Below, in pieces: positions 12,868-13,252 of a stretch of DNA of 18,523 bases. The stretch comes from a virus: IMG/VR virus record IMGVR_UViG_3300035696_000282; one strand, 5' to 3'. Numbering within the stretch: the stretch's first letter is position 1; each line of letters begins with the position of its first letter. Both the position numbers and the translations under genes were made by a program. The notes beneath the pieces were generated by a model that was given only the letters and a program-made list of their open reading frames with translations, had not been told where the DNA came from and did not search any database.

Positions 12868-12899
12868 CAAAAAAGAGGAGACTCTTTCGAATCTCCTCT
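12868..12899 (-). terminator. Rho-independent terminator ending the structured non-coding region
   Basis: Minus strand reads A-GAGGAGA-uucgaaagag-UCUCCUC-U followed by UUUUUUG (8-bp stem, 10-nt loop). On the + strand there is no downstream T-tract, which supports a minus-strand orientation. Confidence 0.6.
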
Positions 12900-13252
12900 C
12901 CAAAAGGGAAGGTATAGCATTTACCTCCAAGTTAGGAGCAGCACCGGATTTTTCGACCACGCCCCTTCGGAGTCGCGAACTCCAAAAGTTTGATAGCAGG
13001 GAGATTGTTTACTCCCAGGTATTGCAGTGAATAGCCATAATGTTATTAGTCTCAGGGTCTTCTGCAATACCGCCTACCCAGCTGTTATTCCCCTTACGGG
13101 GTTGCCCCAAAGGTTGCGCGACCTCCAGCTGGCTTTCGCGTCTTATCCGATAACTGAACCTTCAACCACTAAAGGTTCTTCACCAGTAGTGTGCTTTCTG
13201 CCATTCAAGCAGTGTTCAGCCACCTCTTTTCTTGTAGTATCATGTATGCGAA
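12900..13252 (-). ncRNA. Candidate structured non-coding RNA of unknown class (~350-380 nt including the terminator)
   Basis: 463-nt intergenic gap, GC-richer than its surroundings, with multiple perfect stems. On the minus strand CCCC-GUAA-GGGG is a GNRA tetraloop hairpin. GGUAUUGCAG...CUGCAAUACC is a 10-bp long-range stem. CCAGCUG...CAGCUGG is a 7-bp long-range stem. GGGAG-uaaacaau-CUCCC is a hairpin. UUGGAGU-ucgcg-ACUCCGA is a 7-bp hairpin. CUGAAC...GUUCAG encloses nested hairpins near the 5' end. The + strand ORFs here lack an RBS. Confidence 0.35.

Follow-up and report, generated by a model that had tools for sequence, protein, structure and literature searches.

A probable conserved structured RNA of ~360 nt, ended by an intrinsic terminator ahead of an orphan gene in a phage lineage

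RNAs that are large, fold in complex ways and have no known function are seldom encountered, and several of them have led to new biochemistry. ROOL and GOLLD are roughly 580–800 nt in length, compared with 360 nt for the RNA described here. The Y RNAs are shorter, at 80–130 nt; their long terminal stem carries the Ro60 site, they include a tRNA-like module with T and D arms, and their genes lie beside rsr (PMC4201824). Vault RNAs are 88–140 nt long (bioRxiv 10.1101/2023.11.10.566534). We have analyzed an element in an 18,523-nt stretch of viral DNA (IMG/VR record IMGVR_UViG_3300035696_000282), the whole of which we call the window. The element lies in a 463-nt minus-strand gap (12790–13252) between open reading frames (ORFs) at 13253–13600 (115 aa) and 12229–12789 (186 aa). 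The GC content is 0.46–0.485 inside the gap and ~0.37–0.39 in the flanks, so that both the coordinates and the composition given in an earlier, sequence-only reading are correct. That reading proposed a novel minus-strand structured RNA with its own terminator, likened to GOLLD, ROOL and vault RNAs. The proposal stands and the analogies do not. We conclude that the minus strand from ~13229 to 12868 is very probably a conserved structured RNA of ~360 nt, preceded by a conserved box that begins at 13252.

The evidence begins with a homologous locus. Copies of the RNA in ENA and Logan were reached via protein look-ups. The 115-aa upstream protein has no relative except on a near-identical ENA contig of 2.7 kb (L002), on which one base of the RNA is changed, from A to G, so that a U-A pair becomes U-G. 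For the 186-aa downstream protein there is a single homolog (P0003), found on Logan contigs L005 (10.8 kb) and L006, with 74% identity over the N-terminal 113 residues. Directly upstream of P0003, at L005 3494–3857, there is a homolog of the RNA with 86% identity. L005 is heavily rearranged with respect to the window, and the other genes they have in common are scattered, with 70–73% DNA identity; the RNA is the best-conserved DNA common to the two. The longest block shared in blastn, and the sole long collinear one, aligns L005 3494–4272 with window 13229–12466, covering the RNA and the start of the orphan gene. The strong homology starts abruptly at window 13229 (AAAGAGGTGG), and the genes upstream of the RNA are unrelated between the window and L005. 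The RNA has been inherited as one block with the downstream orphan gene.

Folding of the minus strand gave a minimum free energy (MFE) of −132.6 kcal/mol with z = −3.92, and 0 of 100 dinucleotide-shuffled sequences were as stable. The plus strand gave z = −1.64. The description of the region as highly structured in the sequence-only reading is therefore borne out beyond chance. When 385-nt stretches were folded along the whole window, with folding energy regressed on GC content, the interval emerged as the strongest minus-strand structure outlier in the 18.5 kb, at −3.6 standard deviations. A consensus fold calculated from three sequences using RNAalifold has 109 pairs in 15 helices, with 14 of the 109 being G-U. 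These G-U pairs, and the changes from G-C to G-U, indicate that the RNA is made from the minus strand, because they would be A-C mismatches on the opposite strand. In the predicted fold two invariant 5′ hairpins are followed by a long-range helix, a five-way junction that includes a GNRA hairpin, a 3′ hairpin and the terminator.

The RNAs of the window and L005 differ by 47 substitutions and small indels (50 differing alignment positions) over 363 nt, and these changes respect the helices. In the RNAalifold structure 98.2% of cells in the pair count are standard pairs, and 8 pairs have changed on both sides yet remain paired. As controls, sliding the 3′ partners by 1–3 columns left 0–2 double changes and 40–54% pairing, and 0 of 500 column shuffles matched the observed values. 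The structure predicted from the window alone was also used in order to avoid circularity. Set against L005, 7 of its pairs show double compensatory changes, 10 are altered compatibly on one side and 10 are broken; when these substitutions were redistributed at random among positions with the same base, at least 7 doubles arose in 2 of 20,000 trials (P = 1e-4). Reading the alignment by hand gave ~12 double changes, and overall there are 8–12 doubles in 6–7 helices. In aggregate the covariation signal across the helices is strong, and the check on a homologous locus that had been suggested at the outset shows helices kept through compensatory changes in L005.

We see very little chance that the interval is not a functional RNA, and is instead a DNA element (an origin, packaging site or recombination hotspot), a gene in decay, or a segment exchanged in recent times with stems that are incidental. 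A recent exchange could explain why the 5′ 88 nt are near-identical between phages that are otherwise 70–80% identical, and only two lineages are known. Yet the compensatory changes concentrate in the predicted helices, and the G-U pairs and G-C to G-U changes are sensible on one strand only. Moreover no frame shows coding decay, and the window contains no repeats, iterons or other copies of the element.

We describe the anatomy of the RNA from its 5′ end; all the coordinates are for the minus strand. Directly after the stop codon of the upstream gene there is a conserved box TTCGCATAYATRA (13240–13252), which is the same in the window and L005 except at the Y and R positions. As the box has no further copies in either contig, it cannot be a promoter motif of general use; it may serve as promoter −10 DNA, or may mark the true 5′ end of the transcript. 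Next is an 88-nt 5′ domain (13142–13229) that is ultra-conserved, with 1 substitution compared with 46 in the remaining 275 nt. It contains a sequence resembling a Shine-Dalgarno (SD) element (AAAGAGGUGG), hairpins Ha and Hb, and the 5′ strand of the long-range helix. Ha is CUGCU-UGAAU-GGCAG (13212–13198). Hb is CACUA..UAGUG (13191–13167), and a mutually exclusive alternative to it is GAACCUU/AAGGUUC (13178–13156). The long-range helix pairs AGG..CAGU.AUCGGAU (13161–13145) with AUCCGGUGCUGCUCCU (12949–12934), and encloses the junction domain with 14 pairs. It is predicted both from the window alone and from the alignment. All 14 pairs are kept in L005, where one G-C pair has become G-U and the two strands show no other change, which leaves covariation unable to test this helix. 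Within the window no targets complementary to the 5′ domain were found beyond chance.

The five-way junction is closed by helix Hc, formed from GACGCG (13142–13137) and CGUGGUC (12961–12955). The corresponding strands in L005 are GGCACG and CGUGGCU, so that one A-U pair has become G-C through a double change, two further pairs are altered compatibly on one side, and none is broken. Arm Hd (CCAGCUG/CAGCUGG, 13132–13078) carries He and Hf, and is invariant in L005. So is hairpin He, GGAGGU-CGCGCA-ACCUUU (13126–13109). The GNRA hairpin Hf, CCCC-GUAA-GGGG (13101–13090), becomes CUCC-GUAA-GGAG in L005, a compensatory change. Arm Hg (13071–13018) consists of the 10-bp stem GGUAUUGCAG/CUGCAAUACC and a variable distal part. 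Here ..UUGCAG / CUGCAA.. in the window compares with ..CCGCAG / CUGCGG.. in L005, and the arm has two U-A to C-G doubles, one G-C to G-U change and two broken pairs. Hairpin Hh is GGGAG-UAAACAAU-CUCCC (13016–12999) in the window and GUUGG-UAAACAAU-CCAAC in L005. Three of its 5 pairs are thus compensatory doubles, around an 8-nt loop that is invariant. The last arm is hairpin Hi, CUUUUGGAGUU-CGC-GACUCCGAAGG (12988–12964), in which GGAGU / ACUCC in the window compares with GGAA(C) / (A)UUCC in L005 (one double, two one-sided and one broken), and the loop CGCG is retained. He and Hi could make a loop-loop contact through the invariant CGCG present in both loops.

Hairpin Hj, GGAGGUA-AAUGCUA-UACCUUCC (12928–12907), has a conserved loop AAAUGCUA. 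Its L005 counterpart is AAGAGU-AAAUGCUAG-ACUCUU, and with a one-base indel correctly placed by hand it exhibits three doubles and one one-sided change; the gap placement by MAFFT hides these double changes in the automated pair count. The following CCUUUU (12907–12902) can pair with the 5′ AAAGAG(G). The RNA ends at the intrinsic terminator T1 (12901–12869), with a 13-bp stem that is invariant, a loop of the GNRA type, which is GAAA in the window but GUAA in L005, and a U tract. Each of the local elements that the sequence-only reading had picked out was recovered: the 10-bp stem GGTATTGCAG/CTGCAATACC (13018–13027 / 13062–13071), the 7-bp stem CCAGCTG/CAGCTGG (13078–13084 / 13126–13132), the hairpin with the GUAA loop, and a terminator (12901–12872) with 13 pairs and U6 that lies ~60–70 nt before the SD sequence AAGAGGAGG of the gene starting at 12789. 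The 79-nt spacer after T1 (12790–12868) contains this SD sequence within a small GUUCC/GGAAC hairpin, and is well conserved only in its last ~25 nt.

A number of other pairings were considered. The complementarity of the s1:s2 hairpin (CUCC/GGAG) is kept in L005 only with a shift of register. Two pairings, one between the 3′ arm of Hh (AAUCUCC) and the terminator arm and the other between GACGCGAA and UUCGCGAC, are not kept in L005 and were rejected as chance. Folding gave no support to a post-terminator hairpin that had seemed compensatory by eye.

Does the interval encode protein? The substitutions in the RNA fall 18/18/11 over the codon positions in every phase, and 24–39% are synonymous in all six frames, so by this analysis no reading frame looks coding. 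ORFs do exist on the plus strand at 12793–12993 and 13027–13266, and their translation had been named beforehand as something that would count against an RNA. They carry no coding signature, have no match in Pfam or PHROG, and are absent from a collection of 15 billion proteins. Cluster look-ups of the spurious ORFs that overlap the RNA returned nothing.

The 5′ domain deserves separate consideration, since on the minus strand a frame stays open through its first 87 nt (KEVAEHCLNGRKHTTGEEPLVVEGSVIG*) and ends at UAA. In this frame of 28 codons there are 0 synonymous changes in 27 conserved codons and the sole substitution is nonsynonymous, while the coding sequence (CDS) of the downstream orphan gene has 31 synonymous differences in 81 conserved codons. 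Zero synonymous changes at the CDS rate has a probability of ~2.5e-6, and thus the constraint on the 5′ domain acts at the nucleotide level and not on amino acids alone. In L005 a 65-aa gene is called at 3383–3580 on the plus strand, the last 28 codons of which are the invariant 5′ domain. Its start overlaps the preceding 41-codon ORF by ATGA, and its first 37 codons have no counterpart in the window.

It is improbable that the first 88 nt encode a peptide of 21–26 aa (..AEHCLNGRKHTTGEEPLVVEGSVIG), with the SD-like AAAGAGG driving a GUG or UUG start, as part of a dual-function RNA or a leader-peptide attenuator. The ultra-conserved stretch does run from the SD-like sequence to the UAA stop codon, the next substitution being 2 nt past the stop, and the open frame extends over 65 aa in L005 as the called gene with the ATGA overlap. 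The known variants are K to R in L005 and a synonymous GAA to GAG in L002. Against this are the lack of synonymous changes noted above, the lack of an AUG in the frame in the window, and the spacing from the SD-like sequence, which is 12–14 nt to UUG (13208–13206) and 0 to GUG (13223–13221). Furthermore, the N-terminal 37 codons of the L005 ORF are missing from the window, and no family or database relative of the peptide was found. On the pattern of substitution, a small peptide cannot be the main explanation.

We compared the element with known RNA families using the 4227 covariance models of Rfam 15, applying gathering thresholds to the whole window, and E ≤ 10 to window 12700–13400 and L005 3380–3940. 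At gathering scores the only match in the window was tRNA-Gly at 1635–1705, and there was none in L005. At E ≤ 10 there was only noise, the best score being 17.9 bits against a threshold of 60 for a model of a human long noncoding RNA; this same model was the only one shared by the window and L005 copies. The scan, which had been recommended from the first, thus assigns the interval to no known family. The failure of the sequence-only reading to match RNase P, tmRNA, a T-box or a cobalamin riboswitch is also upheld, as none of these models matched at E ≤ 10. The RNase P models capture P4 and the conserved core CR-I to CR-V, and besides their failure to match, the GGAAAGUCC-type motif is absent from the sequence. 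ARAGORN found no tRNA or tmRNA in the interval, nor any tmRNA in the window or L005. The cobalamin-class models (RF00174, RF01482 and RF01689), whose core contains the B12 box and GCCACUG, gave no match at this level; by eye CAGAAGACCCUG, AGCCAGCUGGAGG and GGUGAAGAACC are like fragments of the cobalamin consensus, in the wrong order. T-box models, defined by stem I with its specifier loop and by the bulge sequence of the antiterminator, did not match within the element, a weak match lying elsewhere at L005 970–1138 (13.5 bits, E = 1.1), and there was no match to the L-box models of the lysine riboswitch. No similarity to GOLLD or ROOL was found by covariance models, so that analogy falls, and the nearest tRNA gene is 11 kb from the element.

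The same searches bear on whether the RNA is a diverged group I-like intron, another known ribozyme or a housekeeping RNA such as RNase P or tmRNA, which we regard as scarcely credible. Its size, GNRA loop, multi-helix junction and phage setting would all be typical, and GUUCAG and GAGACUAA may be akin to parts of the group I R element. However, no Rfam intron (group I or II), RNase P, tmRNA or ribozyme model matched even at E ≤ 10, and this includes the group I P3–P9 core. In L005 there is no conservation of GAGACUAA. Both flanking ORFs are complete, with their own stop upstream and their own strong SD sequence and ATG downstream, a terminator lies inside the element, and the upstream gene differs between the lineages.

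The gene content of this lineage raises a further possibility. The window encodes an 838-aa protein resembling the major vault protein (MVP) at 2678–5194 on the minus strand, with shoulder and repeat domains (MVP shoulder 4e-24, and Vault_3 repeat). L005 encodes the C-terminal part of a Ro60-like protein at 2–922 (Ro60 vWA domain 3e-32, and TROVE), and six ORFs separate this gene from the L005 copy of the RNA, 2.5 kb downstream. No TROVE gene is present in the 18.5-kb window. The 440-nt gap that follows the Ro60 gene in L005 (923–1362) gave no Rfam match and showed no notable structure (z = −0.26), and no Y RNA was found there. L005 also encodes a PP2C phosphatase and a protein kinase (8838–9689 and 10296–10835). 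Together the Ro60/TROVE, PP2C and kinase genes of L005 and the STAS gene of the window look like parts of eukaryote-like ribonucleoproteins (RNPs) and of partner-switching-type signaling in one lineage.

We consider it very unlikely that the RNA is a subunit of a phage Ro60/TROVE or MVP (vault-like) particle, and thus a functional analog of a Y or vault RNA. Equally unlikely is the more specific form, in which it would be the dedicated subunit of an RNP of Ro60/TROVE and MVP-like proteins, a viral, prokaryote-infecting counterpart of Ro or the vault, with the invariant 5′ domain as a platform for protein binding. If so, and the odds are just as long, the RNA would be much larger than, and unrelated to, Y or vault RNAs. 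The presence of the MVP-like protein in the window and of the Ro60 protein 2.5 kb upstream of the RNA in L005 favors such a role, as does the potential pairing of the RNA ends (AAAGAGG with CCUUUU). Y RNAs, which occur in phages as well, are usually near rsr (PMC4201824). Yet the length of 360 nt contrasts with the 80–130 nt of Y RNAs and the 88–140 nt of vault RNAs, the terminal pairing (AAAGAG[G]/CCUUUU) is only 6 bp, and ARAGORN and Rfam found no tRNA-like module and no match to Y_RNA or Vault. The T-loop consensus in the hairpin GGAGU-UCGCG-ACUCC is not kept in L005, where the loop is CUCGCGA. The RNA is linked to an orphan gene; the MVP gene is ~7.7 kb away and the Ro60 gene is 2.5 kb away with rearranged genes between. 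There is also no copy of the RNA within 20 kb of the MVP genes of LR756500 and LR756501. The analogy to vault RNA drawn from the sequence is therefore not supported, given the length, the lack of a Vault match and the linkage to the orphan gene and not to the MVP-like gene.

The consistent partner of the RNA is the orphan gene. In both lineages the RNA is adjacent to and co-oriented with it, while the upstream neighbors differ, and the two co-occur in both lineages and were found nowhere else. The gene (12229–12789, minus strand) encodes a protein of 186 aa, predicted to be all-helical, with a possible helix-turn-helix at around residues 33–66, and its own terminator lies at ~12190–12215. The gene ends at its own terminator in both contigs, and L005 carries only the N-terminal 118 aa of the protein. 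It has no match in Pfam, PHROG or the Protein Data Bank (PDB), and the AlphaFold2 (AF2) model, which is all-helical with a predicted local distance difference test (pLDDT) score of 49, is too poor for a fold search. Profile search, and full HMMER against 1.84 billion representatives, found no further homologs.

We tentatively favor the view that the RNA is a long 5′ leader, or attenuator, of the 186-aa gene, an option that the sequence-only reading did not consider. In both lineages the structured domain lies upstream of the gene in the same orientation, and an intrinsic terminator stands before the gene. With T1 before the gene and a second terminator after it, the unit has the order RNA, T1, gene, T2, as in genes under the control of a leader. 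There is no terminator between the RNA and the genes upstream, and thus upstream transcripts would run into the RNA. A scan of the 79-nt spacer between T1 and the start codon found no sigma-70-like promoter. According to the proposed mechanism, when the folded domain is closed T1 would form, transcription would stop and a stable RNA of ~360 nt would be released. When the fold is perturbed the polymerase would read through into the 186-aa gene, stopping at the gene's own terminator. Candidates for the signal are a small molecule, a host factor and the orphan protein. When the nascent 3′ region was folded without the 3′ arm of the terminator, the 3′ strand of the long-range helix paired with the terminator 5′ arm (MFE −18.5 kcal/mol), and L005 allows a related alternative pairing of an antiterminator-like kind. 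Riboswitches classically have such an arrangement.

Several observations weigh against a leader. When the upstream part was shuffled it paired at least as much in 0.36 and 0.43 of trials, so the antiterminator-like pairing may reflect the pyrimidine- and purine-rich composition of the strands; these are invariant, and covariation therefore cannot test the pairing. The spacer after T1 is poorly conserved and has no significant structure (z = −0.5 and −0.8), and its predicted folds differ between the two lineages. A size of ~360 nt with ~15 helices exceeds that of almost all known cis-regulators. T1 is strong and invariant, like the terminators of stand-alone RNA genes, and as the radical SAM gene also has a terminator before its SD sequence, this placement is not special in this phage. 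The promoters of huge phages are unknown, which makes the failure to find a sigma-70 promoter weak evidence. A ligand or regulator cannot be proposed. Lastly, there are two independent lineages only, so that each helix rests on one comparison.

The main rival to the leader is a stand-alone, trans-acting noncoding RNA that ends at T1 and partners the orphan protein as an RNP, with the 5′ domain as the binding or active site. This is possible, if somewhat doubtful. The arrangement would resemble those of OLE RNA with oapA, tmRNA with smpB and Y RNA with rsr; like OLE beside oapA, the RNA lies next to the gene of a possible partner protein. The size and complexity are typical of free noncoding RNAs rather than leaders, and the strength and invariance of T1, the fall in conservation directly after it and the lack of statistical support for the antiterminator all point the same way. 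So do the co-occurrence of RNA and protein gene in both lineages and nowhere else, and the conserved box together with −10-like hexamers (GATACT / TATAAA, AATACT) that lie 5–8 nt upstream of the start of strong homology. However, there is no convincing −35 element, and a promoter scan found nothing upstream of the RNA. No promoter is seen for the downstream gene either, so that read-through would be needed in any case. The orphan protein has no recognizable RNA-binding domain, and only its N-terminal 118 aa are present in L005. A leader and a free RNA are not exclusive, as a terminated leader can accumulate as a stable RNA.

The RNA is rare in the collections scanned; its known copies are those of the window, its twin L002, and L005/L006. 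DNA-pattern scans with the conserved stretches covered viral, metagenome and genome collections. Those of the viral collection gave only chance matches (L001, L007–L012 and L016–L024), as judged by eye and with nhmmer. Those of the metagenome collection found no copy, and that of the genome collection gave one chance match, in a coding sequence of Bryobacteraceae. Neither blastn of the element nor tblastn of the two neighboring proteins gave a match in 50,697 phage records. For the huge phages LR756500 and LR756501, the 40 kb surrounding their MVP genes yielded no copy of the RNA with nhmmer. Used as a search handle, the radical SAM protein gave only unrelated weak matches.

The window has the look of a large phage, with many small orphan genes. 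Among deposited phages the only relatives of its MVP-like protein are in LR756500, LR756501 and LR756503 (462–735 kb), with 45–47% identity, which suggests that the window derives from a huge-phage lineage. Its tRNA-Gly (CCC) gene (1635–1705, minus strand), the sole Rfam or ARAGORN match in the window, lies in a 200-nt gap between plus-strand ORFs. Other genes encode a radical SAM enzyme (13620–14552), the STAS-domain protein (15881–16513), an HD phosphohydrolase, a pyrimidine-dimer glycosylase and a DprA/SLOG-like protein (784–1347, minus strand). L005 contains shorter and partly duplicated pieces of the last of these at 4452–4855 and 6023–6366 (55–79% identity), which may be fragmented or duplicated copies. 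A second long minus-strand gap at 17068–17551 was rejected as a site of another RNA, being AT-rich and containing a plus-strand gene.

An unannotated ORF of 52 aa at 14650–14808 on the minus strand (MSGTTVIIIVVVLLLIFGSGGRVTGGGCRIRKVRNTPRPKINPRPQRKRDNN) has an ATG that overlaps the stop codon of the gene at 14805–15656 (ATGA). Its product is hydrophobic at the N-terminus, rich in Gly in the middle and basic in the tail, and the ORF is followed by a terminator at ~14560–14595 and then by the radical SAM gene. It could encode a small peptide of the membrane, or else a precursor, similar to those of ribosomally synthesized and post-translationally modified peptides (RiPPs), for the radical SAM enzyme. 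There is also a large family of paralogous proteins of 65–130 aa, encoded at window 7245–12000 and 17552–18485 and at L005 2467–3264 and 5471–5677. These have a C-terminal motif of roughly h-x-x-h-I-x-x-(I/L)-F, examples being LIKSIFLAEG, LIRAIFAAKK, LIKILFVAKY and AIKGIFYIGE. The motif is found near the N-terminus of the 186-aa orphan protein (LQRAIFQIF).

The interest of the locus lies in an RNA of 360 nt and ~15 helices, with covariation support and no relative in Rfam, from a lineage that, judging by the MVP-like protein, is related to huge phages, and in which there are RNP genes of a eukaryote-like type (for the MVP-like protein in the window and for Ro60/TROVE in L005). Were it a leader of the sensor type, it would represent a new class of viral regulatory RNA, and identifying the ligand would show what the phage senses in the host. 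Were it a free RNA acting with the orphan protein, the two would make up a new phage RNP. The known copies come from two lineages and the value of the finding depends on more copies or on experiments; it is likely to interest specialists in structured RNAs and in huge phages.

How then does the RNA compare with described systems? A link to the Y/YrlA and vault RNAs is that relatives of the phages encoding it possess Ro60/TROVE and MVP-like genes, and its two ends may pair. The RNA differs from them in being three to four times longer and adjacent to neither gene, and the Ro60-site helix of Y RNAs was not detected, in a search that had no dedicated model of the Ro60-site motif. With OLE, GOLLD, ROOL, raiA and HEARO it shares the character of a large, GC-rich, multi-helix intergenic RNA in an AT-rich genome, having a fold supported by covariation and a biochemical function that is unknown. 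In contrast to these large orphan noncoding RNAs it matches no covariance model, is confined to two phage lineages and is not beside tRNA genes. Compared with attenuator leaders (the lysine riboswitch with its five-way junction, cobalamin riboswitches and T-boxes) it is about twice the size of a typical aptamer, has no match in Rfam 15 and has an antiterminator indistinguishable from chance; it is found in phage upstream of an orphan gene, so that no ligand can be inferred. Its likeness to the lysine riboswitch in particular is in the number of junction helices alone. Yet it has in common with these leaders a conserved GC-rich domain 5′ of a co-oriented gene, and a long-range closing helix that is followed by an intrinsic terminator and then an SD sequence. 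As in those leaders, the 3′ strand of the closing helix has the potential to pair with the terminator 5′ arm. The RNA matches no described family, and in kind it is a terminator-coupled structured leader or an orphan large noncoding RNA.

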